This document shows positions 22,300-41,937 of a DNA stretch of 64,000 bases, in pieces. The DNA is taken from assembly GCA_963718895.1 (NCBI GenBank), contig CAVRAG010000004.1, forward strand, positions 256,001 to 320,000, in the 5' to 3' direction. The DNA is from an uncultured Nitrososphaerota archaeon (GTDB lineage: Archaea > Thermoproteota > Nitrososphaeria > Nitrososphaerales > Gagatemarchaeaceae). Each line of letters opens with the position of its first letter. Position 1 is the stretch's first letter. The notes beneath the pieces are model-generated. The model was not told where the DNA came from, did no database searches, and saw nothing but the letters and a program-made list of their open reading frames with translations. The position numbers and the translations under genes are program-made.

Positions 22300-22324
22300 G
22301 CCGAAGAGGAAAGATTGATTGTTT

Positions 22325-23700: not shown

Positions 23701-23768
23701 GTCTGGTCTTCTGCGATTCCAATGCCGGGTGCGGCTATAAGCGCCTTGTGTCTTCCGGGGTTACTTTC

Positions 23769-23810
23769 TGATTGAGAGTTTTTTCCGAACCGCGTCAGGT
23801 CCCGAGGCCC
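23769..23810. repeat. Hybrid site: motif B fused to right half of motif C at CGAAC
   Basis: tgattgagagttttttccgaac|cgcgtcaggtcccgaggccc. Confidence 0.7.
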
Positions 23811-23900
23811 TCTTCAGCGGTAGCAAGCGCGACAAGCATGGGATCGAAAGGGTTGCGAGGACCATGGTCCAAGTGCGGCTTCTCCAGCGAAGGGGCCCCG

Positions 23901-24479
23901 CTAGGAGATCGTGGCACTCCCAGACCAGCCGCCGCCACAAGCAGTGATTACCTGGATTCCGTTGATGGCATCATTCACGCTTCCCCCAAAACCGGGAGCG
24001 ATGCCGGAGCGGGACCCGTTCACCGCGCCTGAAGGAAGGTTCAGCTCGACCGTAGCCGTACCGCCTCCGCAGATGGGGCCACTGAACTGATAGATGTGTC
24101 CCTCGTACGGGACGTTGAACGTGAAGGACCACCCGGCGAGGTCAGAAGATGGCACCGAGACGTAGCCGGTCGAGTTCGTCACGAAATCCCAGTTGCCGAG
24201 TATGGTACTCGTGGGTTTGGACGGTGTATTCTCCGAGGTACCTATCGGACAGAGCTCGTACAGCCAGCCCTTGACGCCCAGACCGCTCACCGGGTAGGCG
24301 GGCGTTGTCGTTACGATGTGGACGTACAGATTATCCCCCGGAGTGAACACACATTCGATGCTCGGTCTGGAGTAGGTCGAGTAGATGGAATAGCTCGCGC
24401 CCGCTACGACCAGAACCAGGACAAGGACGAGGGCGAGCATGACCCGTCGAGAAGGCCGTTTCTTCTGTGGCGCTTCCAT
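23901..24479 (-). CDS. Membrane-anchored surface protein
   Basis: Basic N-terminus plus TM, beta-rich ectodomain. Confidence 0.65.
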   Translation of the reverse strand: MEAPQKKRPSRRVMLALVLVLVLVVAGASYSIYSTYSRPSIECVFTPGDNLYVHIVTTTPAYPVSGLGVKGWLYELCPIGTSENTPSKPTSTILGNWDFVTNSTGYVSVPSSDLAGWSFTFNVPYEGHIYQFSGPICGGGTATVELNLPSGAVNGSRSGIAPGFGGSVNDAINGIQVITACGGGWSGSATIS

Positions 24480-24503
24480 GTCTCGCGCGCCCACTGATGA
24501 GAA

Positions 24504-24524
24504 GATTTACGCTTTTGTCCGAAC
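24504..24524 (-). promoter_or_regulatory. Motif B variant
   Basis: gttcggacaaaagcgtaaatc (identical to 39503-39523). Confidence 0.7.
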
Positions 24525-24609
24525 GGTTCTACTAAGTCTTCGTCATTCGAGGCCTGACTTTAGGGCCGTTAACTGTGGTCAGTTATCGGGTCGTTACTCG
24601 AATCATCAA

Positions 24610-25053
24610 TCAGGGAGGGACTATTATTGTGATTGGGGTATTGGGATAGGACACTGCGGCGTTGGATATGGTTACGGCTGCGAACGTGACCGAATACACC
24701 CCCGGCGGGATTGACTGTAGGTCCATCAGGAACACAGGTAAGGTCTGATTGAACCCCATCGTCGTCGTACCGTCGGCCACATAGATCGCGGTGTCTCCCT
24801 TGAAGGTAGCAAAGACCACGACGGTCAAGGGAGGCTCAGGCTCCTCGCTCGTGACGTTGACTCTGATTCCTGAATAATACCCCAGAGTGACATATTGGGC
24901 GCTATTCGAGTTGAAGCAGACTCCACAGAGAGTTATGATGTGCTGAGTGCTACCGGATACTGCAGGACCACTTGCCAAGGCGGGAATCAGCGCCGCTGCT
25001 ATCACAATCGCTGCCGCGATGACGCGATAGCTTCGAACCGGCCGAGAGCTCAA
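24610..25053 (-). CDS. Secreted/anchored Ig-like protein
   Basis: Leader MSSRPVRSYRVIAAA and upstream DNA nearly identical to 58481 gene; partial motif B at 25087-25102. Confidence 0.65.
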   Translation of the reverse strand: MSSRPVRSYRVIAAAIVIAAALIPALASGPAVSGSTQHIITLCGVCFNSNSAQYVTLGYYSGIRVNVTSEEPEPPLTVVVFATFKGDTAIYVADGTTTMGFNQTLPVFLMDLQSIPPGVYSVTFAAVTISNAAVSYPNTPITIIVPP

Positions 25054-25157
25054 ACCGAAGCGCCTTGAGACGTCGCGCCCGACTTCGTGATTAATAGCTA
25101 TGCCTCAGTGATTGGAATCCAGAACATTCGTGGCGGCTTCTGGCAAAGGGAGGAGCG

Positions 25158-25409
25158 TCAATCGGTCACTGGTATTGGCGGGTTACATGTCATGTAGATG
25201 GACCCCTTCCAGAGGGAATCACCGAATCCAAGAGTAGCGCAACTGACCGAACTATAGATAGCATTTGAGGCACCGTTGCCCTTTGTGCTTGTAATGCAAC
25301 TACCGCCGCACGATTGACCAGTTTTCACCACTGGAGCGAGGGAGAAGACAAGTAGGGATACACCCACAATCCCGACGACCAAAACAACGGCTTTTGACTG
25401 GCGCTTCAT
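25158..25409 (-). CDS. Small single-TM Cys-rich protein (VP-SY family)
   Basis: FSLAPVV...YSSVSCATLGFG. Confidence 0.6.
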   Translation of the reverse strand: MKRQSKAVVLVVGIVGVSLLVFSLAPVVKTGQSCGGSCITSTKGNGASNAIYSSVSCATLGFGDSLWKGSIYMTCNPPIPVTD

Positions 25410-25435
25410 GCCAAGAACCTCAGCCACCGGATTCT

Positions 25436-25457
25436 TGACTAATAGTCTTGTCCGAAC
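25436..25457 (-). promoter_or_regulatory. Motif B
   Basis: gttcggacaagactattagtca. Confidence 0.7.
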
Positions 25458-25501
25458 TGGATTGGGTTTGAAGCATCTGGAGCTCATTGGGCCTAAACGC
25501 G

Positions 25502-26359
25502 TCAATTGACGCTAACGTAGAAGGTGATGAAGTCCGAGCCAGCATTCCATTCGATGCCGGCAGAAGGATCGGTCTGCTCTGTGAACCACACGCCCTTCGG
25601 CGGTTGGGTGTAAGCGATGTAGGCGAACCCGGTGAAATTCGTGTCCAGTGTCACCGTAAAGGGATTCCAGTATTCAACAGCCCGCGTCCCAGACGTGACG
25701 GCGATCTCGGGGAGCCCTATCAAGAATTGGTGCGTGTCATTTGAGTTCGGCAGTGGATAATGGGTCACGTTGGTTACGTTGTATTCCGTTATCGTTCCTG
25801 AATAATTCTGTCCCAGATTTGGGGATATCGCAGTGAAATTGACCCCTTCGAATACGATGGATCTGGCGTCGAACACGCTCTGCAGAGGCACGCTCAGGTG
25901 TCTGTATTCTACACCCTTGATGGTGACCGTATCAGACGAGATTTCGTGGGTTAGAGCCCCAATCTGCTCCTGCTGGTAGACGGCCACAGAACCGAGCACG
26001 ATCAGGACCACTAGCAGGCCGGCAAGCATGGCCTTCTGGTGCGACAGGTGGAGGGCGGGCCTCGCACTCGGGTGCCCCTCGTCCTGCTTTCTGCCTGCAT
26101 CGATTATCCGGAGAGCCTCCTTCCCTTCGTCAGTGACCGTGTACAGACCCTGGCCATTCAGCTTGACCAGCCCCGACAGCCTGCCCAGGTGGAACGAGAG
26201 GAGCCCGTTGCTCTCGAGCCCTACCGCGTGCTTGAGCTCCGAGAAGGGGAGCGGCCTTTCGCTTACAGCCTGAAGTATCCTGATTCTTGTGGGATGCCCG
26301 AGGGCCTCGAACACCTCAGCCCTCGATGAGTTGAACGATTCGTCGCCATTCCCTGACAC
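25502..26359 (-). CDS. ArsR HTH-TM-ectodomain transmembrane regulator
   Basis: SFNSSRAEVFEALGHPTRIRIL, central TM, C-terminal ectodomain. Confidence 0.8.
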   Translation of the reverse strand: MSGNGDESFNSSRAEVFEALGHPTRIRILQAVSERPLPFSELKHAVGLESNGLLSFHLGRLSGLVKLNGQGLYTVTDEGKEALRIIDAGRKQDEGHPSARPALHLSHQKAMLAGLLVVLIVLGSVAVYQQEQIGALTHEISSDTVTIKGVEYRHLSVPLQSVFDARSIVFEGVNFTAISPNLGQNYSGTITEYNVTNVTHYPLPNSNDTHQFLIGLPEIAVTSGTRAVEYWNPFTVTLDTNFTGFAYIAYTQPPKGVWFTEQTDPSAGIEWNAGSDFITFYVSVN

Positions 26360-26511
26360 TTTGGCATGCGCTCCCGTAGCAGCAATGGGTGTGTCGTGAT
26401 TTAATGCCTCGTTCGTTGACCTGCCGAATCTTCCGATTATTGCAGGACAACGTTTCTTGACCCTCGTCTGGACTGGATGTTCTGTTGTGGTCGACTCTCC
26501 GGTTCGCCCAG

Positions 26512-26811
26512 TCAAGACCCCGACCGCAGCCGAGACAGCTTCAGGCTTCCCACGTGGTCGACAATCCATCGGACGATTCCGTCGTAGGCCTCTGAACCCG
26601 ACCGGGTGAGCTGCACCTGGCCGTCCGCGTCGAGTCTGACGAACCCCTTCTCCGTCATCCAGTCCATGTACCTGACGAGGCGGTCGTACGAGAGCCCCGT
26701 CGCCGCCGCGAGCGCTGTCCTGTTCATCGCTCCCTTCTCTTTCAGGGTCTTGACGATGCGAGCGAAGACGTACAGGTCAGGCCTTGTTGAACTCGGCCCT
26801 CTTGAACTCAG
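26512..26811 (-). CDS. Winged-helix (HTH_45-like) regulator, possible CTG start
   Basis: RPDLYVFARIV...NRTALAAATGLSYDRLVRY; frame open up to a CTG preceded by GAGGGG. Confidence 0.65.
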   Translation of the reverse strand: MSSRGPSSTRPDLYVFARIVKTLKEKGAMNRTALAAATGLSYDRLVRYMDWMTEKGFVRLDADGQVQLTRSGSEAYDGIVRWIVDHVGSLKLSRLRSGS

Positions 26812-27469
26812 AGTAGAATCCCCTCAGGTCCCAGAACAGAAGATCGAGCGAGCGCAACCGGTTGAAGCCCGTCTCGAGGCTCTTCTTGCTGAATATCAGG
26901 ACAATTATGATGGATGCCGGGACGAGAAACTCCAGGACTGCGGGAACCCAGTACATCAGCCCTGCGAATTCGGCGATGACTGAGAGTAAGAAGTAGGTCA
27001 CGAGTGAGTAGCCGGCGACCTTGAGGATAGAGTAGAACAGGTACGCGATTCTCGAGGTGCTGACCATGCCCAGCTGCGACTCCCAGTCCAGCTCGGAGAG
27101 AAGTTTGACGGCTCCCGGGACGCCCTCCTCCATGGTCTTCTTCCATTCGCCCATCTTGGTCCGGCTAACCCTCCGGTCGACCCAGAGTATACCTCCGAGG
27201 AAGCCTCCCAGGACGATGATGCCGACCGCGAGGGAGGCGAAATTGCTCGACGGGATTCCGCTGAACGAGAAGTTCGCGCCGTTGACGGGAAATCCGGAAG
27301 TCACCTCGTACACGCCATCGAAGAATACAATGAGGATCGAGGCGATAATTGTGACCACCAAGATTGCCAGGAAGTCGAGCATCGCATAGGCGAGCTCCCT
27401 GTACTTCCGTACGTCGTCGAGGGCCCGCATGAGGTCGCTGACCTGCTCGACCACCTCCGCTTCGCTCAT
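26777..27469 (-). CDS. Membrane protein (4 TM)
   Basis: Hydrophobic segments; overlapping operon arrangement. Confidence 0.65.
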   Translation of the reverse strand: MSEAEVVEQVSDLMRALDDVRKYRELAYAMLDFLAILVVTIIASILIVFFDGVYEVTSGFPVNGANFSFSGIPSSNFASLAVGIIVLGGFLGGILWVDRRVSRTKMGEWKKTMEEGVPGAVKLLSELDWESQLGMVSTSRIAYLFYSILKVAGYSLVTYFLLSVIAEFAGLMYWVPAVLEFLVPASIIIVLIFSKKSLETGFNRLRSLDLLFWDLRGFYSEFKRAEFNKA

Positions 27470-27957
27470 AGGGACACGCCCAGCACGCGGACCGAGACCA
27501 TGGCAGCCCCGTTAATCACGAGGTAGAATACGTGAATCCCTTTGATGGGGACCGGAATGGCGTTGAACGTCAGGAAGTCCGTGGCGTTCTGTCCGGTGAG
27601 GACCGACGCGTCGAGCGGATGATTCCCGTAGACGGAGTATCCTTCGCCGCTCGTGCCGACGTCCTCGAACGTATAGTAGATGGTGTTGGGCAGGACGATG
27701 GACTCGCTCCGGGTGACCCCCTGGATGGTCGTGCTCGTCCCGTTCGGGAAGGTCACTGACGCCGACTGGTTCACCCCGTCAGGCTGGATTGTTATCAGGA
27801 CGCGCGCATAGACGTAGTCTTCCTTGGCAATCACGAGGACCGAGGTTCCAGAGTTCCCTGTCTGATAGAAAGAAGGTTGTGGGCTCTGGAACAACGATAG
27901 TGTGGGCGCGACCAACACGAGAATCAGAACCAGGACCAGGAGCCATCTGACTCTCAT
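27466..27957 (-). CDS. Secreted/anchored protein
   Basis: Signal-like N-terminus; TATA-like ttaaata upstream. Confidence 0.6.
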   Translation of the reverse strand: MRVRWLLVLVLILVLVAPTLSLFQSPQPSFYQTGNSGTSVLVIAKEDYVYARVLITIQPDGVNQSASVTFPNGTSTTIQGVTRSESIVLPNTIYYTFEDVGTSGEGYSVYGNHPLDASVLTGQNATDFLTFNAIPVPIKGIHVFYLVINGAAMVSVRVLGVSL

Positions 27958-28029
27958 AAATCGCAGCGCCTCTCGAGTCTATTTAAGGCGGACTCACTCG
28001 GAGAGAGTCCCCAGGCGCTCGTTGGTCTG

Positions 28030-28176
28030 AGATGCCGAAGAATGGGAGTGCCACGTATTGGGTTCGTTGCGCCTCCGCCGGTCCACCCTATCCAGGTTCG
28101 TCAGCTACTGTGAGTGAGCCGTGGTGGGGGTTCCAATTGCTCTCCGGGTTTCTGCGTGCGAACCGCGCCGGGGCCC
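28030..28176 (+). repeat. A-C repeat block with upstream arm
   Basis: gggttcgttgcgcctccgccggtccaccctatccaggttcgtcagc...gcgtgcgaaccgcgccggggccc. Confidence 0.9.
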
Positions 28177-28319
28177 TCTTGCTACCCAGAAGAAGTTGGC
28201 AGATCTCTCTGGGAATGATTGCGAGACCCAGCTCTCCCTTAAATACGTGAAGGTGCTCTCCGACATCGTGGCGCTCATCCGCGAGTTGACTCTTCCTCGT
28301 AAAACGGTGGATTCAGAGC

Positions 28320-28712
28320 TTGGATGATGCCGTGCTCAAGCGGAGACTTGCATCGATGTTGAGGTTCGATCCTGCAATCAGGTATGTCATGTTAATCGGA
28401 GAGGACGACAAGCCTCTGTCTTCCGTCTCTAGAAGAAGCGATAAGTCGGCCCTCGAGCCTCCTGGACAGGGGAACCTAGTGCTCAGGCGGTTCGCGATCG
28501 CTCGGGGCATGGCGTCGACATCTGATTCATTTTACGGCCCAGCGCGCTTCGTCATACTACTGCGAGAGAAACTGATCGAGATAGTCTACCTGTCAGCCGC
28601 GAATATGATTCTAGTGGGGGCTGACCCTGATTTCCCCCTCGAGAAGGTCAAGCGACTTGCCAAGGTCTTGGACAAGGTTCAAATCAGGAGTCGGGCAACT
28701 CCGAAGTCTTGA
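28320..28712 (+). CDS. Roadblock/longin-like (DUF6659-like) protein
   Basis: DPAIRYVMLI...FYGPARFVILLREKL pattern. Confidence 0.5.
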   Translation: MDDAVLKRRLASMLRFDPAIRYVMLIGEDDKPLSSVSRRSDKSALEPPGQGNLVLRRFAIARGMASTSDSFYGPARFVILLREKLIEIVYLSAANMILVGADPDFPLEKVKRLAKVLDKVQIRSRATPKS

Positions 28713-28830
28713 CTGGGACGCGTAGTCGCCCCGCTTCGTCTGCCGCGAACAGGGTCTATCGCGCCACCGCCAAGCCACCCATCCAGATACATCGGCTTTG
28801 GCAAGAGGATGTTGGAGGGACGGTTCCATC

Positions 28831-28866
28831 TCTCTCGGGTCTTACGTGTGAACCGCGCCGAGGCCC
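28831..28866 (+). repeat. Motif C
   Basis: tctctcgggtcttacgtgtgaaccgcgccgaggccc. Confidence 0.7.
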
Positions 28867-29360
28867 TCTCGCTCCTTGTCCCTCAGAGGTACGCCATGCG
28901 ACCGAGACGGCTCTAAGGTTAAGGATACGGAGAGACCCGATTCATCAGCAGGCGATTATTGAGGGCGTTGCGCTGTGCTTATCTAGAACGAATGGCCCGA
29001 CGATCAGGGAAACTGGTTTGGACACAACCAGAAGAGGGACCACCACCTGGGTTGCTCTCGCCGCCCTTCGAGTCGCCTCGATACTGATAGGAGGGGTCGT
29101 CGCTTTTGCTCTGGGGACTTCTTCCCGTCTCAAGGGTCGAGCGTCGGCCTCCCAACTACGGTAATCACCGTCGTGCTGTTCGTCTTCTTCGTTGTCCTCC
29201 GGCAAAGAAGGGCGCGAGAAATCGAGTCCGAGTCCGACCAATCTGCCGTGGAAGTGAACGCTCTGAGTCATTCCAGCTCGTGACACAGAGGTTTGGCGCA
29301 CAGCCCGGCTTTAATCATAGCCTACGTTGGAAAGGCTTATGGGCGACTTATCCGGTCGTC

Positions 29361-29651
29361 ATGAATGACTTGACTGAATCACAGGGTCGGGCGATGATGA
29401 TTGGAGTGCCAACATTGGTGCTTCTGACTCTTGCTGGATTCATTGTCAGCGCAGTACTCGAAGGGGCTTCGCGTACCCCTGCCCCCATTCTCGTTCCACT
29501 TGCCTTGAATCTCGGTCTTGGGTATGTGCTACTCAGAGGTGGAAAGCATGCTGGAGCCGGGCGAGTGATCCTCTATGGCGGAATGCTTGCCTCAGCGGCG
29601 CTGTTCTTCGTCTTCATTGTGCTCTTTTCGCCAAATTCGCTGTTTGGTTAG
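29361..29651 (+). CDS. Small 3-TM membrane protein
   Basis: Hydrophobic ORF; start inferred. Confidence 0.5.
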   Translation: MNDLTESQGRAMMIGVPTLVLLTLAGFIVSAVLEGASRTPAPILVPLALNLGLGYVLLRGGKHAGAGRVILYGGMLASAALFFVFIVLFSPNSLFG

Positions 29652-29878
29652 CTAGGGGTCTGCAGAACTTTCAGTAGTCTTGTTAATCTTGGATAAAGAA
29701 AGAAGGACATGCCACGGATAGGGTCCATTGCGTTTCCCGGAAACTGGTGTAGAACGTGGGGTGGTCCTAGAGCCAGCGACTCGTCCCAACTCAGCCTGCG
29801 TTGTTGGCCATTCGATTAGACACCCGGCGAACTCAACCCAAACAGATGCCGATGAGGGTAGCATTCGGAAGGCTGCTG

Positions 29879-30496
29879 TCACTCCGTCGCATAGCCTTTC
29901 TCGATGAGGAACTTCTTGAAGTCCTCCGACTCGGTTATCATCAGATCGATAGAGCGGAGGAGCATCGCGTAGAAGAACTCCATTGCCTCGTGGCTGCGCT
30001 GGCAGTTCGGACAGATATTGGTCTGCTTGGTGGGGATGAACCTCTGGAGCTCCTTGGTTCGGAACTGCTCAAAAGCGCCCTGCAGGGCCCTCGTCACGGG
30101 CTCGCGCATCTCCCCGGTCATCTTCTCGAGGATGCCGCTCACCCTGAGCGCGGCGTCGAACTCCTGATCGATGCGATACTTCCCCCAGGTGCTCCTTTCG
30201 CAGACGAAGCGCTTCTTCCTCTCCCCCTTCCGCTTCTTCTCCCTCGGGTAGAGGAAGACGTATTCCAGGCGGTATAGCTCCTTGAGGGTCGAATAGACGA
30301 CGCTGGCGGGTATCATCTCCCGCCGCGTGATGTCCTCCACCGTGACCCCCTGGGCGCCTGCCTGGCGTATCTGGTCCATTATTCGCCAGGTCGTCTCCTT
30401 CGAGAGCAGGTCCGCCTCCAGGTACGACTTGACCGGAAGATGGGTCAGGTATGTCTTGATGTTCTTCGCCTTCGCGGTCCGCATCAGCGACCGCAT
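29879..30496 (-). CDS. Winged-helix regulator with CxxC, divergent from Ehr operon
   Basis: VTVEDI...SVVYSTLKELYRLEYV HTH; CPNC..H. Confidence 0.6.
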   Translation of the reverse strand: MRSLMRTAKAKNIKTYLTHLPVKSYLEADLLSKETTWRIMDQIRQAGAQGVTVEDITRREMIPASVVYSTLKELYRLEYVFLYPREKKRKGERKKRFVCERSTWGKYRIDQEFDAALRVSGILEKMTGEMREPVTRALQGAFEQFRTKELQRFIPTKQTNICPNCQRSHEAMEFFYAMLLRSIDLMITESEDFKKFLIEKGYATE

Positions 30497-30734
30497 CGTC
30501 GTGGCGGCCTTAAGACTTTCGAGATTTCTCTATTTCCCGAAATTAGCGCGATTCCAATCTTTCGGGTCAAAATATCTAATAGCTGAACCGGGTCGCGGGC
30601 CGCTCCTAGAATTGCCAGACCCGACCATGCAGAGCCTTCCGACCTCGAGCTTCGAGGAGACCGGGGAGACTGCTGCCAGTTGACAGCTATACGATTGTCA
30701 GAGTAGGACAGAGAAGAGAGAACCCGAGACTCAG

Positions 30735-32812
30735 TTGAACGTCAGCTACGCCGTCCCAGCCCTGTTTCTAGCGATCGTCGCGCTCTTCGTCGTTGGCGCG
30801 CTGCTGCCGCTCTTGCTCAGGGATGCGAGGCGTGCGACCATCGCCGCGTTCGTGCCGGCGGCCGTCGCCTCCGCGCTGACGGTGGCGCTCTCGGTCCTGG
30901 TATTGTCCTCGGGAGCCGTGGTCCTGTTCTCATCTCCTCTCGCCGCGCCCGCACCCTCAATCGGGATCACGTTCTACATCGACGGCGTCGCCGCCTTCTT
31001 CATGCTGATTATCGGGCTCGTCGCGGCAGCCGTATCCGTCTACTCGCTGGGCTACAGCGGCGCGTCTGGCGGAGGGCACAGCGGCAAGTCCCTCGGGCTG
31101 CTGCTCAACGTCTTCGTCCTGTCGATGATCCTGGTGACAGCCACGGACAACGTGTTCTCTTTCCTGTTGTTCTGGGAGCTCATGTCGCTTACCTCGTTCC
31201 TTCTGGTCATCCACGACGACGAGAAGCCGGCCAACCTCAAGTCGGGGATCACTTACCTTGTCATGACGCATGTCGGCACCGCGCTCATCACGGCCGCATT
31301 TCTCGTCCTCTACTTCCAGACCGGGAGCCTCTCGTTCGACGTGTTCAGGAACTCCGCCGGTCAGCTCGCCCCCCTCACCAAGGACGCCGTCTTCGTCCTG
31401 GCGCTGGCTCGGCTTCGGCACCAAGGCTGGGCTGGTCCCTATGCACATCTGGCTCCCCAAGGCGCATCCCTCCGCCCCGAGCAACGTCTCCGCCCTCATG
31501 TCGGGGGTGATGCTGAAGGTGGCCATCTACGGGCTGGTCAGGGTAACGCTGGACTTCGTCGTCCCGAGCTCCCCAGGAGACGCCTGGCTCGGCCTGCTCA
31601 TGGTGGGAGCCGGGGCCACCTCCGCGCTGGTCGGGGTCCTCTACGCTGCCGTAGAGCACGACATCAAGCGCGCCCTTGCGTACCACAGCGTAGAGAACAT
31701 CGGGATCATCGTCCTGGGTCTCGGGCTCACGGTGGTCTTCATGTCGTATGGGCTCGCAACTCTGGCAGCCCTCGCGCTGCTCGCCAGCATGTACCACTCG
31801 CTCAACCACGCGGTCTTCAAGGGGCTCCTGTTCATGGGGGCCGGGTCGGTCGTGGCCAGGACCGGTAACGCCGACATGAATCTGATGGGCGGACTGGCGA
31901 AGAGGATGCCGTGGACCGCCGCGTTCTTCCTCGTCGGGTCCATAGCCATCGCAGGTCTCCCTCCGCTCAACGGATTCGTCAGCGAGTGGCTCACGATGCA
32001 GGCGCTGCTCTCGTCATACCAGGTGCCCAACCAGGCGCTGCAGGTCTCGATCGGCTTCGCCAGCATCGCCTTCGCGCTGACCCTCGGGTTGGCTCTGGCC
32101 ACATTCGTCAAACTATTCGGAATCTCTTTCCTGTCGCGGCCGCGGTCCGGAGAAGCCGAGCGGGCCACCGAGGTCCCCCGAACGATGATCGGCGGCATGG
32201 CCGTCGGCGGGCGTGCTCTGTGTCGTGCTGGGCGTGCTGCCGTTCTTGGCGACGTCCGCCATCGCGTCGGCCTTCAATCTGAACCTGGGGCTGACCTCCC
32301 CGTACTCCGCGCTCGGTCCCCTCGCCGTGGGTTACACCGCAAACGGCCTGAGCTCCGTCAGCAGCCTCTCGATGCCGACGGTGCTGATTCTCACCGGGTC
32401 GGTAGGTGCTGCGCTCTTCGGCTTCGTGGCCCTCGCCGGCTCCGGACGGAAGCCGGTCGTTCGACCGTACCCGACATGGGAGGGTGGTTTCGGTCCACTC
32501 AGCGAGAGGACCGAGTACACCGCCACTTCGCTCTCCCAGCCCATCCGCACCGCGTTCAAGGCGTTCTACAGGCCGCACACGAGCATCCATCGCGAGTACA
32601 ACGGCTCAAATCGCATGGTCACGAGGTCGGTGAGCGTCGTCTCCGAGACCAGGGAGATATTCGAGGACTACCTCTACTCGCCGATCGTCAGCGGGACCCT
32701 GTTCGTCCTCGACAAGGTGCGAAGGATCCAGACGGGCAAGGTGAACTCCTACCTCCTCTACATGATGATAGCGACTGTCTCACTGCTGCTACTGGCGGTG
32801 CTCGAGCAATGA
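30735..32812 (+). pseudogene. hyfB: HyfB/EhrA-like antiporter subunit (NuoL/MrpA family), two +1 frameshifts (~31408, ~32208)
   Basis: FWELMSL, KAGLVPMHIWLPKAH, LAYHSVEN, GLPPLNGF, IQTGKVNSYL found across three frames. Confidence 0.8.
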
Positions 32813-33783: not shown

Positions 33784-33797
33784 TTGGTGAGATGTAG

Positions 33798-34469
33798 TTG
33801 CAGATAGGACAACCCGACATAGTCGCGTTCTCCTCGGTGGCTCTCCTTGTCTCGACCTTCGGCGTGGTCGTCCGACGGAGCTTCGCGGGCTGGCTGAGCG
33901 CCTACCGGTACCAGTCGGTGGTCCTCGCCGGCTCGACCGGGCTCATCGCCTACGCGACGGGCGTCTGGGAGATATACGCGGCGGCCGTCCTCACCCTGCT
34001 GATCAAGGCCATCGTGATTCCGAGGCTGCTGGTCCGGGTCACAGAGGGGGTGAATGACGAGTTCAAGATCGAAGCGAACCCGTACGTGAGTATAAGGCTC
34101 TCCGTCTTGGTCTCGGCCCTCTTGGTCGCCCTCTCCTACGCCCTCGTCCAGGAGACCCTGCCGTCAGCGGGGCTGGACGCCCTGGCCGCGGCCTACCTGC
34201 CAATCTCGCTCTCCCTCTTCTTCATCGGGCTCTTCGTCATGGTCAGCAGGAGGATGGCACTCAACCAGGTGGTCGGCCTCCTCATCATCGAGAACGGCCT
34301 CTTCCTCTTCACCACGGCGCTGACGAGCGGCGTCTCCCTCATAATCGAGGTCGGGATCCTGGCCGACATCCTGGTCGGCGTGATGATCTCCGTTCTGCTC
34401 CTAATCAGGATGACCCGGACCTACGACACTCTCGACATCGGCCGTCTGGAGAAGCTCAAGGATGATTGA
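33798..34469 (+). CDS. hyfE: HyfE membrane subunit
   Basis: KAIVIP, QVVGLLIIENG; position in operon. Confidence 0.85.
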   Translation: MQIGQPDIVAFSSVALLVSTFGVVVRRSFAGWLSAYRYQSVVLAGSTGLIAYATGVWEIYAAAVLTLLIKAIVIPRLLVRVTEGVNDEFKIEANPYVSIRLSVLVSALLVALSYALVQETLPSAGLDALAAAYLPISLSLFFIGLFVMVSRRMALNQVVGLLIIENGLFLFTTALTSGVSLIIEVGILADILVGVMISVLLLIRMTRTYDTLDIGRLEKLKDD

Positions 34470-34475
34470 TCGGTC

Positions 34476-36029
34476 GTGTGGTGGTCGAACTTGCTGACCG
34501 TCGCTGGTCTGGTCCTCCCGTCGGGCTGGGGGGCCGTCCTTCTCACCATCATCTTGACCCCTGCCGTCTCGGCCGTGCTGGTGACCCTCACGCACAGGAA
34601 GAGGTGGGCCGAGGCCATCACGCTCGCCTCCGTAATGCTGGTGGGCCTCCAGGCCCTAGGGTTGGTAGCGGGCGTAATCGTTGGCAGGCAGGTCTCCGCC
34701 TTCGGCGAGATCCTGTACCTCGACGCGTTCGGCGCCCTGATCCTGATTCCGATAGCAGGCGTCGGATTCGTCGCCGCCCTCTACTCCATCAACTACATGG
34801 GGAGGCAGTACGACCGCGGCATCGTCGACGACCGGCACATAGTCAGGTACTACCAGGGATTCAACGGGTTCATGCTCACCATGCTCGTCGTCCCGCTTGC
34901 GAACGACATGGGGCTCATGTGGGTCGCAATCGAGGCGACCACTCTCGTCTCCGTCTTCATGATAATGCTCTACACGACCGAGGGGGCCATCGAGGCCGCC
35001 TGGAAGTACCTGACGATCGCCACGGTGGGGCTGTCCCTCGCCCTGCTCGGCATAGTCCTCTTCTCGTACGCGAACACCTCGGCATCGCCCTCGGCCTCAG
35101 GGATGGACTGGACGAGCATGGTCGCCAACTCGGCACTCCTCAACCCGGGGATCGTCAAGGTTGCCTATGTCTTCGTCCTTGTGGGCCTTGGAACGAAGGC
35201 CGGCCTCGCCCCTATGCACACGTGGCTCCCGGACGCCCACGGAGAGGCCCCGACCCCCGTCAGCGCGCTGCTCTCAGGCGTCCTACTGAACTGCGCCATC
35301 TACGGCGTGCTGAGGTTCTATATCGTAGCGTCCGGCACGCTGGGACCGGCATTCCCAGGCCAGCTGCTCATCCTGCTCGGCCTGCTTTCCATGGGCATAG
35401 CGGCGGCATCCATCTACTTCCAGAAAGACATGAAGAGGATGCTAGCGTACTCGAGTGTCGAGCACATGGGGATAGTCTCACTGGCGGTGGGCTTTGGAGG
35501 CTTTCTGGGGCTCTTCGCCGCCCTGCTCCACATAATCAACCACGCCATTGCGAAGCCCCTGATGTTCTTCGCGAGCGGCACGGTGAGCCAGAGGTACGGG
35601 ACCAAGGTGATGGCAGAAATCAAGGGGATCATCAGGGTCATGCCGGTCACGGGCGCCATGCTCCTCCTCGGAGGCCTGGCCATAGCCGGGATGCCCCCGT
35701 TCAACGTATTCCTGAGCGAGTTCCTCGTGATGACGGATGGATTCGGCACGGGACAGTTCTTGATCACCCCGATAATGATCATCCTCCTCGTGGTCGTCTT
35801 CGCGGGGTTCTTGCGGCACCTCGTGCCTATGGTGTTCGGGAACCCGGCCACCGGGAAGGCGGTCCCCTCCGAGAAGGGTTTGGGAACCGACGGCATGGGG
35901 GTGCTCGCGGTGGCCCCGATGCTAATCCTGGCGTCGCTGGTGATAGTCCTCGGATTCTTTGTCCCCCAGCCTCTGCAGACCCTCATCCGCGACGCGACGC
36001 AGGTGTTCAGCCAGGGGGCGGCATCCTAG
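34476..36029 (+). CDS. hyfF: HyfF antiporter-like subunit
   Basis: WVAIEATT, EAAWKY, HTWLPDAH.EAP, KRMLAYSS.EH. Confidence 0.88.
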   Translation: MWWSNLLTVAGLVLPSGWGAVLLTIILTPAVSAVLVTLTHRKRWAEAITLASVMLVGLQALGLVAGVIVGRQVSAFGEILYLDAFGALILIPIAGVGFVAALYSINYMGRQYDRGIVDDRHIVRYYQGFNGFMLTMLVVPLANDMGLMWVAIEATTLVSVFMIMLYTTEGAIEAAWKYLTIATVGLSLALLGIVLFSYANTSASPSASGMDWTSMVANSALLNPGIVKVAYVFVLVGLGTKAGLAPMHTWLPDAHGEAPTPVSALLSGVLLNCAIYGVLRFYIVASGTLGPAFPGQLLILLGLLSMGIAAASIYFQKDMKRMLAYSSVEHMGIVSLAVGFGGFLGLFAALLHIINHAIAKPLMFFASGTVSQRYGTKVMAEIKGIIRVMPVTGAMLLLGGLAIAGMPPFNVFLSEFLVMTDGFGTGQFLITPIMIILLVVVFAGFLRHLVPMVFGNPATGKAVPSEKGLGTDGMGVLAVAPMLILASLVIVLGFFVPQPLQTLIRDATQVFSQGAAS

Positions 36030-37696
36030 TGGCGGGGCAGACAGGGGTCGCTGGCTGCGAGGCGAAGCTGCGCGCCCGATTCACGATGGGGACGAATTCC
36101 ATTCGGCTGCTAAACGGAAACGAACTTCACTTCAGGATTAGTAGGAGGGAAGAGCTCCCGGACGTGTGCGCCTACGTGTACGATGAACTGAAAGGCGTCC
36201 TGGCGACGGTCGTCTGTTCCGACGAGAGGCGCCTCAGTGGAGAGTTCGTCCTCAGGTACGCCTTCGGCATCGGCGGTGAGGACCTCTTCATCGTGGTCGA
36301 GGCGGGGGTCGAGCAGGGTCACCCCGACTCGCCTTCCTCCTTCCCGAGCGTGGCGACCCGTCTGCCGGCCGCGACCCTCTATGAGCGGGAGGTTAGGGAC
36401 ATGTTCGGCCTTGTGCCAGAGGGCCATCCGGACGTGAGGCCGATGGTGCTTCACGAACAATGGCCCCACCGCGCGCATCCCCTGAGGAAGGACTTCGAGA
36501 TGGGCACCAAAGTAGGCAGGGTCACGGACCGTCCATACGAGTTCCTCAGGGTGGACGGAGAGGGCGTCTCCGAGATCCCGGTAGGCCCAGTCCACGCGGG
36601 GATAATCGAGCCCGGCCACTTCAGGTTCAGCACTCTCGGCGACACCATAGTCAACCTGGAGACGCGACTCTACTACACGCACAGGGGGGTCGAGAAGCTA
36701 TCGGAGTCGATGAAGCTGGACCATATCCTCCTTGTCAGCGAGCGAATATCCGGCGACGAGGCGGTGGCGAACTCGACGGCCTACTGCCAGGCCATCGAGA
36801 AGATCGCTGGAGTGACCCCACCACGAAGGGCGCTCCAGATTAGGGCCGTCTGCGCAGAGATGGAACGCATGTACAACCACATCGGCACGGTTGCAGGACT
36901 CTCGACCGATGTGGGGTTCGCCTACGGCTCCGCCAGGCTCAGCATCTTGAAGGAGAGGATGATGCGGCTGAACGAAGAGGTTGCGGGGAGCCGGCTCCTC
37001 TTCGGCGTCAACAGGCTGGGTGGGGTTGGCGTAGACCTGACCGAGGAGAAGGCCGGGCGAGTGCTTGCCGAGGTCGACGCAGTGCTGGGAGATTTCAAGC
37101 GTGTGGTGTCCGTCCTGAGGAACGATTCGTCAGTCATGGACAGGTTGAGGGGAACAGGGGCGATATCCTCCGCCGTCGCCCTGGAGTTGGGTCTGGTGGG
37201 GGTCGCTGCGAGAGCGTCGGGCGTGGACATCGACGTGAGGAGAGACCATCCCTACGGCGCCTACCGCTCTCTTCGTGTCGACTCGCACCACGACACCGGG
37301 GAGCGCGCGGCCCACTACGAGACCGAGATGAAGAGGAGAAGGGGAGACGTGCTTGCGCGCTTTGAGGTGAGGGTCGAGGAGGTCGACAACTCGGCAGCGG
37401 TCGTGAGAGAAGTGCTGCAGGACCTCGACGGTGGGCGGGAGCTAGTGGTCCCTCTAGCGAAGGACGCGCTCAAACCCTACGCCCACGCACTGGGCTATGC
37501 GGAGTCCCACAGGGGCCAGACCGTCCACTGGGCGATGATCGGGGAAGACCGGGACTCGCTCTTCCGCTACAAGGTGAGGACGGCGTCGTTCGCCAACTGG
37601 CCGGCGATAGAGACAGCTGTGCTCAATGACATAGTCGCTGATTTCCCTCTCGTGAACAAGAGCTTGGACCTGTCCTACGCAGGGAACGACCTGTGA
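36029..37696 (+). CDS. hyfG: HyfG/EhrL large subunit (NuoC+D-like) lacking NiFe cysteines
   Basis: YEREVRDMFG, GPVHAGIIEPGHFRF, ERISGD (no CxxC), NKSLDLSYAGNDL (no DPC..C). Confidence 0.85.
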   Translation: MAGQTGVAGCEAKLRARFTMGTNSIRLLNGNELHFRISRREELPDVCAYVYDELKGVLATVVCSDERRLSGEFVLRYAFGIGGEDLFIVVEAGVEQGHPDSPSSFPSVATRLPAATLYEREVRDMFGLVPEGHPDVRPMVLHEQWPHRAHPLRKDFEMGTKVGRVTDRPYEFLRVDGEGVSEIPVGPVHAGIIEPGHFRFSTLGDTIVNLETRLYYTHRGVEKLSESMKLDHILLVSERISGDEAVANSTAYCQAIEKIAGVTPPRRALQIRAVCAEMERMYNHIGTVAGLSTDVGFAYGSARLSILKERMMRLNEEVAGSRLLFGVNRLGGVGVDLTEEKAGRVLAEVDAVLGDFKRVVSVLRNDSSVMDRLRGTGAISSAVALELGLVGVAARASGVDIDVRRDHPYGAYRSLRVDSHHDTGERAAHYETEMKRRRGDVLARFEVRVEEVDNSAAVVREVLQDLDGGRELVVPLAKDALKPYAHALGYAESHRGQTVHWAMIGEDRDSLFRYKVRTASFANWPAIETAVLNDIVADFPLVNKSLDLSYAGNDL

Positions 37697-38514
37697 TTGA
37701 CATGGACAAGTCTAGAGACATCCTCAGCAATGCGGTCGAGACCGACAGGGACGTACTCAACGGGGAAAGGTCGGTCTCAGGCTTTCGCGGAGACGTGTCG
37801 CTGGTGCCGCAGTCACCTGGCTTTGTAGCAGACCTTGAACTGTACGGGCAGCTGAAGAAAGTCTGCGCACCAAATGCGATTGCGGAGATTCCGGGCGAAC
37901 TCGGCCCCCAGCTTACACTCGACAAGGGCAGGTGCATAATGTGTGGGATGTGCAAGCAGGTCGCGCCCCAGCTAATCGTTGTCTCTGAGCACTTCGCCGC
38001 GCCCGTGAGAAGACAAAGAGAGCTCGTCGTCGCACAGATACCGGAGCCTCCTGACGGCGGCACCCGGCTCCAGCCCGATGAGATAGGGAGACAGCTGAAG
38101 GAGAAGGTGGTGCAGGCGCTCGGGAGATCGCTGGCGGTAAGGGAGGTAGATGCGGGCTCCTGCAATGGGTGCGAGGTCGAGGTCTCTGCGCTTAACAACC
38201 CGGTCTACGATGTCGAGAGATTCGGCGTGCACTTCGTAGCCTCTCCGCGCCATGCGGACGTCCTGTTGGTCACCGGGGTAGGTTCCAGGAACATGGAACT
38301 CGCCCTGAAGAGGGCGTTCGAGGCTACGCCGGACCCGAAGGTCGTTGTCGCTGCGGGAGCCTGCGCCTGTTCGGGAGGGTTGTTTGGGGATACGTATGCC
38401 ACAACAGGTGGGGTCGGAGGGATTGTGCCAGTTGATGTGTTCGTCCCCGGGTGCCCTCCGAGGCCTGAAGCGTTGCTGTATGGGCTACTCCTCGCGGTCG
38501 ATAGAATCCAGTAG
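37693..38514 (+). CDS. hyfI: HyfI/EhrS small subunit (NuoB-like) fused to N-terminal ferredoxin-like region
   Basis: CIMCGMC, GSCNGCEVE, SPRHAD, GACACSGG, PGCPP. Confidence 0.88.
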   Translation: MIDMDKSRDILSNAVETDRDVLNGERSVSGFRGDVSLVPQSPGFVADLELYGQLKKVCAPNAIAEIPGELGPQLTLDKGRCIMCGMCKQVAPQLIVVSEHFAAPVRRQRELVVAQIPEPPDGGTRLQPDEIGRQLKEKVVQALGRSLAVREVDAGSCNGCEVEVSALNNPVYDVERFGVHFVASPRHADVLLVTGVGSRNMELALKRAFEATPDPKVVVAAGACACSGGLFGDTYATTGGVGGIVPVDVFVPGCPPRPEALLYGLLLAVDRIQ

Positions 38515-38701
38515 CGCGTCTGGATTACGCGAGCATCCCAAGAAGGTTCGCCAAAAAAATCGTTCAAGAAAGAGTGGCGGATATGAATACCCCATTTCAC
38601 TTTGTCCAAGATTCTGTCTCAATTCTTACTCGGCTACCAATTCTAATGCCAAGCCGACCCACTTCAAACTCCCGGATTGATGGCGGATTCCAATGAACTC
38701 T

Positions 38702-38742
38702 TCCCGGCTTCTACGTGCGAACCGCGCCGAGGCCCGAGGCCC
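38702..38742 (+). repeat. Motif C
   Basis: tcccggcttctacgtgcgaaccgcgccgaggcccgaggccc. Confidence 0.85.
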
Positions 38743-38842
38743 TTTGATAGGCCCCTTGTCCGTCGAGGCGCGACTATACGGTTAAGATAATGGGACGCGT
38801 TCGATCATCAACCCGAAGTGGCTAGCCTGACTACACTGCCTG

Positions 38843-39472
38843 CTATCCAGCCACCAAGTTGAACCCGGACGCCCCCGAGTACAGCTCGCCTACGTAGGGA
38901 ACTCCTGAACCCGAGACCAGAACCATCTGAACCATGACGCTCGTGCTTCCCACGGTCTCGGGCGTCGCTGTGTTACCGTAGGACAGACCCACGCTGTAGA
39001 TCGCGGATGGGTCGCCGGAAGCCGGGAAGCCTGAGAGCGTCAAGACGGCTCCTGAAACCTCAGAAGGGCCTCCAGTGTAGTTGACGTTCTTCGTGTCGAG
39101 CGCGGGATAGTTTCCCGTGTAATAGCTGAACTGGCTCATCCAGACCTTGGCGGGGTACGGCCCGATTGAGAAGGTGAGGTTTAGTCCCTGGACGCTGAAT
39201 CCTGTTGCATGCCATACCTTGAACCCAAAGGCGGCCGCGTTCCCGGTTGAGTTCGCGGTCAGAAGTCGCGCCGTCGAGTAGTTGAACTCTGCAAGCAGCA
39301 CTCCGGACGCGCTCTTGAAGTAGAGAGTGCTCCATCCCGGGCTCGGAGACCCGGCGAAGCTGGCCGACATGGTGTTATGAGATTGATACACCTGATAGCC
39401 AAACGCGTAGGCCGAACCGAGAAAGAGGAGAACCACTACCACCACGATTGGGACTAGGAGTTTCCTTCTCAA
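38843..39472 (-). CDS. Membrane-anchored surface protein
   Basis: MRRKLL plus TM, Ser/Gly/Thr-rich body. Confidence 0.65.
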   Translation of the reverse strand: MRRKLLVPIVVVVVLLFLGSAYAFGYQVYQSHNTMSASFAGSPSPGWSTLYFKSASGVLLAEFNYSTARLLTANSTGNAAAFGFKVWHATGFSVQGLNLTFSIGPYPAKVWMSQFSYYTGNYPALDTKNVNYTGGPSEVSGAVLTLSGFPASGDPSAIYSVGLSYGNTATPETVGSTSVMVQMVLVSGSGVPYVGELYSGASGFNLVAG

Positions 39473-39502
39473 TTCCCTTCAGATTGGCCGGCTTGACTCG
39501 TC

Positions 39503-39523
39503 GATTTACGCTTTTGTCCGAAC
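39503..39523 (-). promoter_or_regulatory. Motif B variant
   Basis: gttcggacaaaagcgtaaatc. Confidence 0.7.
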
Positions 39524-39525
39524 GC

Positions 39526-40665
39526 CTAGCCCGGTGGAGATGCTGTTACAGTGAAGGGAAGGATGACGCTGTCACCGAATGCGTCGAAGGCGACCATCGT
39601 GTAGTGGCCCGGGCTGAAGTGCTGGAACCCTGAGATCCCTTGTATCTGCGTATTTCCTTGACGGGGAATGCTCCAGTATCCTCCTATGTTGATGGTCGTG
39701 CTCAGCGCCTGGGAGGCGGCGAAGTCGTATACCGGAGCTCCGATGGATAAGCACAGCAAAGTGATTTGGCCGGTGCCGGCCGACGTGTTGGTGATCGAGA
39801 CGGAGAAGTGGATTGGGACGCCGTTTGACGGATCGTTCAGCAGCAAGGGGTCTCCAGACGAGTTGTAGACCATCACGAAGGCGGGCACCGGCGCGTCCAG
39901 CGGAGACAGCCCGCAGAACGGGATGTTCGGAAGGGTGTAGTACCAATAGCCCCCGTTGTTCGGGTTCGCGCCGTAGGGCAGAAGGGGATAGCCCGTGGTG
40001 TTGAGCTGCCTCGGGGCGTTCAGGTTGTTCTGCAACGAGAGCGAGATGGTCAGGTTGGTCCCCGAAGGCACCGTCGTGTTCCCCATCCCGAGGGACAGCG
40101 TCAGGCTCTCCTGGCAGTTCGTGTCGTGGGCCGACGGGCTGTTCGCAATCGACCCGCCAAGATCGCAGAGTTGCCCTTGGGTTATGACCTGGGTCACAGT
40201 GGTGGTAGTCGTCGTTGTCGTGGTCGTTACCAGGGGGATAGTTGTAGTACGTGAATCGAGGCCCTGAATCTGGTTGTACTCTATCGCCGACGCCGCGGCG
40301 AGGACGATCAGCACCACAACCAAGCCCGCAAGTATGGTATTCAGGTGCGGCACACGAATTGAGGGCCGCTGGAACGGACCACCCTCGCTCTGGTTCCTGC
40401 TCGCCTCCACAATCTGGAGAGCCTCCCTGCCTTCATCCGTGAGAGCATAGCTGCCTTCAGGGTTGAGCCTTACGAGGTCCCTCATCTTCCCAAGGTGGAA
40501 GGTGAGGAGGCCGTTGCTCTCCATGCCGGCCGCCCGCTTCAACTCCGAGTAGGCGAGAGGTTTGGCCGCCAGCTCCCGCAAAATCCGGATCCTCGTGGGA
40601 TGCCCGAGGGCTTCGAATACCTCCGCCTTGGAGGAGTTGAACGAGTCGTCGCTGTTCTCGGTCAT
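39526..40665 (-). CDS. ArsR HTH-TM-Thr linker-ectodomain transmembrane regulator
   Basis: SFNSSKAEVFEALGHPTRIRIL; ectodomain ends YTMVAFDAFG, homologous to 58481. Confidence 0.8.
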   Translation of the reverse strand: MTENSDDSFNSSKAEVFEALGHPTRIRILRELAAKPLAYSELKRAAGMESNGLLTFHLGKMRDLVRLNPEGSYALTDEGREALQIVEASRNQSEGGPFQRPSIRVPHLNTILAGLVVVLIVLAAASAIEYNQIQGLDSRTTTIPLVTTTTTTTTTTVTQVITQGQLCDLGGSIANSPSAHDTNCQESLTLSLGMGNTTVPSGTNLTISLSLQNNLNAPRQLNTTGYPLLPYGANPNNGGYWYYTLPNIPFCGLSPLDAPVPAFVMVYNSSGDPLLLNDPSNGVPIHFSVSITNTSAGTGQITLLCLSIGAPVYDFAASQALSTTINIGGYWSIPRQGNTQIQGISGFQHFSPGHYTMVAFDAFGDSVILPFTVTASPPG

Positions 40666-40785
40666 CGCATTCCACGCTGGAGAGAAGATGATTCAGTTGG
40701 GATATAATCCCTCGGTCGTTGTCCAACCGCCGTCGGATGTTCTGGTCTTTGATTCTACAGGACAAGAGTCGTTGTCTAAGGTGAA

Positions 40786-40809
40786 GGGGTTCATTGCGCC
40801 TCCGCCGGG
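40786..40809 (+). repeat. Motif A immediately after a minus-strand stop
   Basis: ggggttcattgcgcctccgccggg. Confidence 0.85.
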
Positions 40810-40815
40810 GCATCT

Positions 40816-41079
40816 TCACCAGTGAGGGTACGCACAGTTCCAGACGGAGTTCGACGTCAAAGACGGTTCTGGAAGACCGACTCCGCTGCCGCTGGGAACT
40901 TGGAGAAAATATCCGCCTACCGCGGCTCCGCACTGGAAGAGCGCGAACGAGGGTGAGACCCAGCCGATGTCCTGCGCGCCCGAACCTGCGTTCCTTCCGA
41001 CGGTCTGTACGAACGGGACAAAGATGAAGACGGCTATCACGATGACCGCGACAATTCCCCAGAGACGCCGGCTTCGCAT
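40816..41079 (-). CDS. Small single-TM protein (VP-SY family)
   Basis: FIFVPFV...VSPSFALFQCG; motif B variant at 41100-41122. Confidence 0.65.
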   Translation of the reverse strand: MRSRRLWGIVAVIVIAVFIFVPFVQTVGRNAGSGAQDIGWVSPSFALFQCGAAVGGYFLQVPSGSGVGLPEPSLTSNSVWNCAYPHW

Positions 41080-41154
41080 ACATCCGCCAATGAGAATCTG
41101 TGACTAATACGCTTGTCAGAACGCTAGAACCCTCTGTAGCAGCTTGTTTGGTTG

Positions 41155-41201
41155 GATGCCTAAGAAAGGCATGCCACGCGTGGGGTTAGTTGCACCTCCG
41201 C
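41155..41201 (+). repeat. Motif A with upstream arm (diverged)
   Basis: gatgcctaagaaaggcatgccacgcgtggggttagttgcacctccgc. Confidence 0.65.
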
Positions 41202-41257
41202 AAGGGTATGCAACACAGTCGCCGCGTTGCTCATCCTTGAGCACCTGTTCCGCCGTA

Positions 41258-41785
41258 TCAGTGAGTCGGACAGGTTGGCGCCGTGTCCAAGTGCGGGATG
41301 ACGCAGTAGAGAGTGGAATTGGTGAACCATGCAGTGTAAACCACGGTCGATTGATTCTCGGTTATCGTAGTGATGTTCAGCCCGCCCGTTGAGTCGGTAT
41401 GAGTTTCTGTGACTGTTCCACCGCCAATGACCGTGTCGTTGTGGACATAATAGTAGGTACCATTGTAGCTGATCAGTTCAACGCTGAGCGATGCGTTAAC
41501 CTCTGATGGAGGACAAGTCGCGGCGATTGCATCGCACAGTCCGATGAACGCAGGTTCTCCGTGGACGGTGACGTTCGCGTTGACGATTCTCAGGCCGTTT
41601 CCCGAAGACACTGTGTTGATTGGAAGGGATGCGGCGGCAGAGGATGATCCGCCGGGATTGGGTGACAAGGTCGACGAGATGGGCTCGCTGCTATACACCC
41701 AGTAGCCCGTCCCAACGGCCATGACAGCCAAGACGACGCCCACGGCTGTAATCGTTCTGGCGACTGCCCATCTTTGGTGCTCCAA
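41258..41785 (-). CDS. Membrane-anchored surface protein
   Basis: TM then Ser/Thr/Asn-rich body; start inferred. Confidence 0.6.
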   Translation of the reverse strand: MEHQRWAVARTITAVGVVLAVMAVGTGYWVYSSEPISSTLSPNPGGSSSAAASLPINTVSSGNGLRIVNANVTVHGEPAFIGLCDAIAATCPPSEVNASLSVELISYNGTYYYVHNDTVIGGGTVTETHTDSTGGLNITTITENQSTVVYTAWFTNSTLYCVIPHLDTAPTCPTH

Positions 41786-41813
41786 TCCAAGTCGTGTTTG
41801 AGAAGGTGATTCC

Positions 41814-41937
41814 TGATTAATAGTTTTGTCCGAACCGCGGCCGGCCCCGAGGCCGGAGCCAAGCCGTGCTCTTTCAACCCCAACATTATGATGAAATGCC
41901 CGGGCGGAGGTGCGATTCACCCTATGCGCATGGCACG
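41814..41937. repeat. Hybrid B|C site plus linker plus inverted motif A
   Basis: tgattaatagttttgtccgaac|cgcggccggccccgaggcc; remainder matches 10338-10420. Confidence 0.85.

Follow-up and report, generated by a model that had tools for sequence, protein, structure and literature searches.

The window analysed here is a stretch of 64,000 nucleotides (nt) from an uncultured Nitrososphaerota archaeon of the Gagatemarchaeaceae (assembly GCA_963718895.1, contig CAVRAG010000004.1, positions 256,001 to 320,000). Its gene blocks form an array of one orientation, in which conserved boxes act as recombination joints; these boxes include three short repeats, here called motifs B, C and D. Our subject is two sites, near 23.8 and 41.8 kb of the window, where B and C are fused through a shared pentamer, CGAAC (GTTCG on the minus strand); these sites probably arose by loss of the DNA between two related boxes. 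The genome holding the window (G000; 3.13 Mb, 80.5% complete) was compared with its relatives, among them G001, G002, G007 and G011.

Both fused sites lie on the minus strand, which codes for most of the genes here. At the first (41815-41854), motif B (41815-41835, reading GTTCGGACAAAACTATTAATC) has no mismatch and is abutted directly by the left part of motif C (C-left, 41831-41854), i.e. a GC hairpin and CCGCG ending in the shared GTTCG. The order on the minus strand is GC hairpin, CCGCG, GTTCG, GACAAAACTATTAATC. This B is a promoter-like box, and 29 nt downstream of it begins an open reading frame (ORF; 41258-41775, minus strand) whose product has an N-terminal hydrophobic anchor. A Pfam scan of an overlapping ORF (41590-41886, minus strand) assigned no family. 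The second site has an identical arrangement, with C-left at 23786-23809 and a degenerate B-like box with three mismatches at 23770-23790; the ORF that begins 69 nt further (23392-23700) encodes no membrane anchor. The hairpin arm is a short GC stem of 4-6 bp (GGCC-loop-GGCC), unlike the long hairpin of an attC site. A first-pass annotation of the sequence had placed the two fusions at 23769 and 41814, as is found here; the hybrid string that it quoted for them is exact for the 41.8-kb copy and differs in several letters from the 23.8-kb copy. The flanks of the two fused sites, compared with each other, show no homology.

Two other sites of the window carry B and C apart, in what we call the full form. 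At 10250-10337 (minus strand), C (10314-10337) is followed by a spacer of 43 nt (10271-10313), by B (10250-10270) and then by ORF 9787-10212. At 22279-22366 (minus strand), a degenerate C (about 22341-22366) is separated from B (22279-22299) by 41 nt. That these two spacers are homologous had been noted in the first pass (10248-10337 and 22277-22366), and it is borne out by an alignment (A1) of eight full forms, two from G000 and six from loci of the congener G002, with the two fused forms: both window spacers can be aligned to one another and to those of the six congener sites, to which both window sites are 77-82% identical over 92-93 nt. In the same alignment, exactly the columns between two GT(T/C)CG repeats are missing from both fused forms; these direct repeats bound the segment in the full form, and a single copy is kept at the joint. 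The spacer of the full form varies in length from about 36 to 50 nt, which indicates a stretch prone to insertions and deletions. The full form is the commoner one, with eight copies in two species, whereas the fused junction pattern (up to 3 mismatches) occurs at two sites, both in G000, among 23 genomes of the genus, and at none in the 22 congeners; its sole match in G002 is an ordinary C. The two boxes that meet at the joint are alike: the right part of C (C-right, GTTCGCACGTAAAAGCC) and B (GTTCGGACATAACTATT) are identical at 10 of their first 12 positions, and the chance of at least 5 matches out of 7 beyond the pentamer is about 0.013.

A full form that is common, a fused form that is rare and boxes that agree at 10 of 12 positions together make the fused sites look like products of deletion or unequal exchange. 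We infer from this the direction of the change, from full to fused form. A modular spacer element sits between the gene blocks of the cassette array; on the minus strand it consists of a GC hairpin and CGGCGCG (C-left), then the first box (C-right), then an indel-prone stretch of roughly 40 nt and last, when the gene that follows codes for a protein of the surface or membrane, a second box, GTTCGGACAWAACTATTAATC (B), the putative promoter-like element of that gene. C-right and B are direct repeats. The DNA between them would have been lost with retention of one hybrid box, perhaps through slippage in replication or an unequal exchange involving both repeats, so that C-left came to abut B at GTTCG. 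With some reserve, we favour such a shortening of a C-spacer-B element, by removal of what lies between its two related boxes, as the probable origin of the fused sites. A microhomology deletion had been mentioned in the first pass as the simpler alternative, and it is the one that the evidence favours. The crossover point proposed there also stands, insofar as the joint must lie inside GTTCG, with C letters before it and B letters after it; the involvement of a site-specific enzyme is unsupported.

Motifs B and C are both strongly non-random. Motif C (CGAACCGCNNCNGGNCCCGAGGCC on the plus strand) has 11 matches in the window against 0.02 expected, and is the core, about 40 nt long, of a one-orientation repeat between small accessory gene blocks. 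The genome of G000 contains about 15 copies; all true copies are in the window, between 2.5 and 45 kb and on one strand, and nhmmer recovers 13 of them there plus one weak copy at C8:908028. The array spans 2499-45042, with all cores on the minus strand: 2499-2533, 6584-6618, 7472-7507, 7656-7690, 10303-10337, 16188-16222, 17159-17193, 23089-23123, 28148-28176, 28838-28866 (weak), 38707-38741 and 45008-45042, to which are added the two fused sites and the degenerate copy at 22341. Four relatives out of 40 have the C pattern, with 24 copies in G002, two each in G001 and G011 and one in G007. In G002, 21 cores stand on one strand within 13 kb (locus L001), around genes that are toxin-antitoxin-like or without known function and lie in either orientation. 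There, gaps of about 111 nt alternate with gaps of 0.5-1.9 kb: 8 of the 20 successive core gaps measure 111-119 nt (C-111 nt-C doublets), and solo copies of C are present too. Doublets and solo copies together suggest recurrent gain or loss between direct repeats of the element. We also observed that the doublets of L001 (G002:C10:18000-37999, minus strand) surround a conserved element that holds no gene and has an inverted repeat inside it.

In the profile, the conservation of C reaches from about -20 to +17 relative to GTTCG. Its consensus from the pentamer on is GTTCGCACGTAAAAGCc, and 13 of the 15 window copies continue with CACGTARAAGC. With conservation on both sides, the pentamer is the centre of C and not its edge. 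In an inverse scenario, the fused form is ancestral and a segment of about 43 nt (C-right and spacer) was inserted, GTTCG being duplicated as target site. The 5-nt direct repeat that flanks the segment is what a target-site duplication would leave. However, 13 of the 15 window copies, and every one of the 30 cores in the G002 loci, have C-right after C-left, mostly with no B behind it; C-right thus belongs to C and is not a separate insert. The fused form is moreover missing from the 22 congeners searched, and 43 nt is, to our knowledge, below the size of any known autonomous or miniature element. We regard an ancestral fused form as very improbable.

Several identities were tried for C and rejected. 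As an RNA gene or structured element, it has no Rfam match at the gathering threshold in the window or in four G002 loci. As a transfer RNA (tRNA), it is not recognised by ARAGORN in the window or in six loci, and none of the 42 tRNAs of G000 resembles it. A derivation of C or B from the ribosomal RNA (rRNA) operon is likewise discarded, as the operon and its flanks match only the D parts of the window units. A source RNA gene for C was thus not found by the Rfam, ARAGORN, tRNA and operon comparisons.

Motif B (GATTAATAGTTWTGTCCGAAC on the plus strand) is 21 nt long and occurs 10 times in the window at up to 3 mismatches, the expectation from 100 shuffles being 0.00; examples start at 10250, 18995, 22279, 41815 and 50351. 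G000 contains 45 to 48 copies. All 48 precede an ORF of at least 70 codons, which starts 6-128 nt downstream. The corresponding proteins fall into 31 BLAST clusters, and 38 of the 48 are hydrophobic in an N-terminal segment, behind which Thr/Ser-rich stretches are frequent. The conservation of B (profile consensus gTTCGGACATAACTATTAATCA) starts abruptly at GTTCG and extends over 21-25 nt, while the sequence upstream is unrelated between copies. From its position we infer that B is probably a promoter or regulatory box common to genes of surface proteins, and the genes preceded by it may form a surface-protein regulon with a single promoter box. Two identical B-like boxes (GTTCGGACAAAAGCGTAAATC) are found at 24504-24524 and 39503-39523 (minus strand), upstream of ORFs 23901-24494 and 38843-39472 and next to two DUF7347/helix-turn-helix paralogues (25502-26569 and 39526-40665).

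Several points weigh against a deletion. No spacer-bearing allele was found at the 41.8-kb or 23.8-kb locus in read data that are thin, so that the direction of the change is argued from frequency only. In six metagenome read runs no more than 0.35 of the sampled words are present, and in a seventh hardly any; contigs from four runs are short unitigs with a depth of 2-4 that show no joints, and none of them spans the 41.8-kb joint. Metagenome scans with the 24-nt word beside B at the 41.8-kb locus and with the exact fused pattern, CCNNNNGCGGTTCGGACAWAACTATTAATC, gave no match, these scans having no positive control and the organisms being perhaps not in the collection. Two fused sites in one genome imply either two independent rare events or a single one followed by divergence. 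The perfect microhomology is just 5 nt long, and hairpin-assisted slippage was rejected, the spacer folding no better than shuffled sequences (z -0.67 to +0.56). A unitig of 91 nt from the soil metagenome run X4 is the same as the window over 23733-23786 (54 nt) and departs from it at either end; the upper break is located in the CGAAC pentamer of the fused site, where a natural exchange point could exist. Finally, B, C and D are all switch points between paralogous loci, which makes an exchange in trans plainly possible.

These switch points were examined through pairs of sites. Thirteen pairs of D sites are homologous on one side only, with the switch within the 21-nt core or at most 10 nt beyond it. 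For the 32 pairs of B sites, homology concerns the right flank only in 27 cases, the left flank only in 4 and both in 1, and any position inside B may be that of the switch. In one case, a C site (window 23104) shares its upstream gene with a B site (C8:1531980); the homology of the two sites runs up to the stop of this gene, about 45 nt before the pentamer. The B, C and D boxes are thus the joints of a mosaic whose switches are not confined to GTTCG. The first-pass annotation would have taken a sharp linkage break at the pentamer as support for site-specific recombination; the switches are located at the D core, anywhere in B and at gene ends, a spread that it had itself named as contrary to its proposal. 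Two further comparisons were set aside: the D-array paralogue of the 23.8-kb cassette is uninformative on the joint, as its homology begins inside the coding region (window 23645), and tblastx of the window against the G002 loci is too noisy beyond five clear shared blocks.

Such a mosaic recalls the main rival of the deletion, an exchange in trans, by which a B-headed block from another locus or cell would have recombined with a C element, the spacer never having been present at the locus. The agent would be homologous or microhomology-tolerant host recombination, to which the related boxes (GTTCGSACRTAA) would have offered a brief tract of homology. The one-sided D and B pairs agree with it, and so does the joining of the same left module to different B genes: the 41.8-kb fused site (41831) and the 10.3-kb full form (10314) have homologous left modules (78.6% over 112 nt) and different downstream genes, the left module of the fused site being made of a reversed D, about 50 nt and C-left. 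However, C-right and B share only 5 perfect bases, or 10 of 12 imperfectly, to be compared with at least 21 nt between copies of one box, and the full form already holds both boxes in cis, 41-46 nt apart, which makes a local event more economical. An exchange in trans is, in our opinion, unlikely.

A more specific proposal of the first pass was that the order of hairpin arm, G|TTCG, promoter and gene reproduces the geometry of an integron cassette start. C and B would then carry the core site of a site-specific cassette system exchanging at G|TTCG, and the hybrids would be products of C x B. The general layout of the arrays agrees with this proposal, since repeats are in one orientation, independent of that of the genes, and separated by 0.5-2 kb with small accessory genes, as for C in G002 and for D in G000 (26 cores in one stretch of 20 kb); same-orientation repeats around short cassettes are found for the true C copies and for D in C8:1.44-1.57 Mb. 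The gene content (PIN/MazE, HicAB, DUF4258, GNAT and many genes without known function) is typical of sedentary integrons, the conservation of B starts sharply at GTTCG, the metagenome unitig leaves the window sequence inside the pentamer, and inspection of the C consensus by eye reveals a weak dyad around it (GGC..CGCG GTTCG CACG..GCC). Other features speak against it. An attC site is an imperfect hairpin in which the R''/R' and L''/L' boxes pair, and no such structure appears in the DNA folds of 5 C units and 10 D-C or C-flank strands (z -1.38 to +2.13); C and the D-C units (z -0.87 to +2.13) fold no better than shuffles. RNAalifold predicts no consensus pairing, either for 58 D units or for 16 extended ones. 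The R' core of integrons follows the pattern GTTRRRY, with the crossover at G|TT, whereas the sites here read GTTCGCA (C) and GTTCGGA (B), with C as fourth base and A as seventh. In integrons the conserved site is upstream of the crossover and the cassette start becomes variable after some 6 nt, whereas C remains conserved up to +17, and its conservation on both sides of the pentamer in 13 of the 15 window copies indicates that a cassette edge is not there. The C site and B site with a common upstream gene diverge well before the pentamer. The reciprocal product was not seen, every copy of C-right in G000 retaining its C-left. An integron would be expected to have an IntI-type tyrosine recombinase next to its array or at least elsewhere in the genome; G000, at its 80.5% completeness, has four matches to the tyrosine recombinase family PF00589 (C8:1339140, C4:99048, C8:1191328 and C8:1192853), none of them in or beside the C or D array. 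An enzyme devoted to cutting at GTTCG finds no support in structure, position or gene content, and an integron-like origin of the hybrids seems quite unlikely.

The third repeat, D (CGGCGGAGGCGCAATGAACCC), has 10 copies in the window, in both orientations. The core at 10387-10407 (plus strand) belongs to 63 nt that are 92% identical to the tail of the 23S rRNA and its trailer; this core copies the 3' strand of the 23S processing stem. Further cores are at 7568-7588, 13547-13567, 16100-16120, 17254-17274, 22427-22447, 28060-28080 and 40787-40807 on the minus strand, and at 44158-44178 and 44921-44941 on the plus strand. Genome-wide, G000 contains 87 copies (up to 4 mismatches), of which about 65 are in C8:1441778-1567993 (126 kb), all on the minus strand and spaced by 0.4-2 kb. 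This array begins 7 nt past the 3' end, as given by the Rfam match, of the only 23S rRNA gene. Extended D is a copy of the last ~35 nt of the 23S and of its trailer, and the D-containing trailer pairs with the 16S-23S spacer at -70.1 kcal/mol, which identifies D as the 3' strand of the 23S processing stem. The blocks of the array hold one or two small accessory genes in either orientation (PIN/MazE, HicAB, DUF4258/DUF2283, GNAT, methyltransferases and many without known function). No recombinase gene was found inside the arrays or next to them. Of the 22 congeners searched, 20 have a D core, as does one of the two other genera of the family that were searched; the records that share it are metagenome-assembled genomes of Nitrososphaerota, Nitrososphaerales or Thaumarchaeota, including Candidatus Gagatemarchaeum. 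In the complete congener genome G007, the D array likewise begins at the true 23S end and covers about 59 kb; its distal flanks are partly syntenic with those of G000, and only few blocks are in common.

Other observations were made on D and on the 23S genes. D was considered as a small gene (a core with GGAGG, then ATG) and rejected, because the downstream frames are not conserved and are shifted by indels. With both orientations present in the window, a transcript across a reversed and a forward D might form a 23S-like processing stem around the intervening genes. The Rfam 23S match of G000 (L012:8000-12001) spans 4002 nt against a model of 2987 positions, and in G007 (L175:5842-10884) about 750 nt of unrelated sequence separate the end of the Rfam match from the last 23S domain; the 23S genes therefore appear to carry insertions.

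Among the other products encoded in the window are PCNA, the primase small subunit, a TFS-like protein and a diphthamide synthase; the organism is therefore an archaeon. A 572-residue ORF at 59903-61621 (plus strand), some 15 nt upstream of where the PCNA gene ends, matches LAGLIDADG_1 (E 2.4e-7) and may encode a homing endonuclease or an intein-type protein.

By themselves the two hybrid sites are a small and ordinary rearrangement. Their interest is that of a marker, as they show that the inter-block spacers of this archaeon consist of short conserved boxes recombining with one another. A bolder scheme can be drawn, in which C, D and the GTTCG-headed B box would be recognition sites of an undescribed cassette-shuffling system of Gagatemarchaeaceae type, acting on linear cores with no linked integrase; C|B hybrids would be rare cross-products exchanged in GTTCG and the 23S-tail array the primary docking site. 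We consider this scheme doubtful. If such arrays do gather accessory genes in non-ammonia-oxidising soil Thaumarchaeota, they would constitute a gene-capture platform outside the integron paradigm, which can now be tested. A full-text literature search found no published description of a 23S-tail repeat array. The main text of the Gagatemarchaeaceae genome paper (PMC10640624) does not mention integron, toxin, repeat, genomic island, mobile or rRNA operon, and that of a survey of integrated elements in Thaumarchaeota (PMC6563490) does not mention rRNA.

Among known systems, the fused sites are closest to deletions between short direct repeats, in that direct repeats frame the lost segment in the undeleted form and the joint retains one of them. 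They differ from them in that the repeats belong to an inter-cassette element and look like functional boxes, perfect over 5 nt and alike at 10 of 12 positions overall, and in that the undeleted allele is not seen here at the same locus. At the scale of the arrays, integron gene cassettes and attC sites, including clusters of attC sites lacking integrases (CALINs) and the archaeal integrons of Ghaly et al. (2022, PMC9668308), have a comparable layout, with one-orientation repeats between small genes that are mostly of toxin-antitoxin type or without known function, and with a succession of repeat, short gap and gene; the absence of an adjacent integrase recalls CALINs. Unlike those of integrons, the repeats here are linear boxes that lack an attC hairpin and show conservation to either side of the proposed crossover; many blocks have their own promoter-like box, and D copies the tail of an rRNA gene.

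Motif B, near-identical over 21 nt ahead of 48 genes in 31 clusters, is reminiscent of reused or "mobile" promoters (PMC3575422), with the difference that the genes behind B are of one class (membrane-anchored, Thr/Ser-rich), so that B may mark a regulon. For D alone, the nearest parallel is with additive flexible genomic islands and tandem accretion at tRNA or transfer-messenger RNA 3' ends (Lopez-Perez et al. 2016, PMC4898812): a stable-RNA hotspot stacks different cassettes across relatives, and the cassettes are marked by direct repeats of the 3' part of the RNA gene. In the D array too, the repeats copy the 3' end of an RNA, the array starts at the gene and the cassette sets differ between relatives. 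Unlike those islands, the system described here has no source gene found for C, and its D array, with about 65 repeats in 126 kb, is anchored on the 23S rRNA tail and its processing arm instead of a tRNA.

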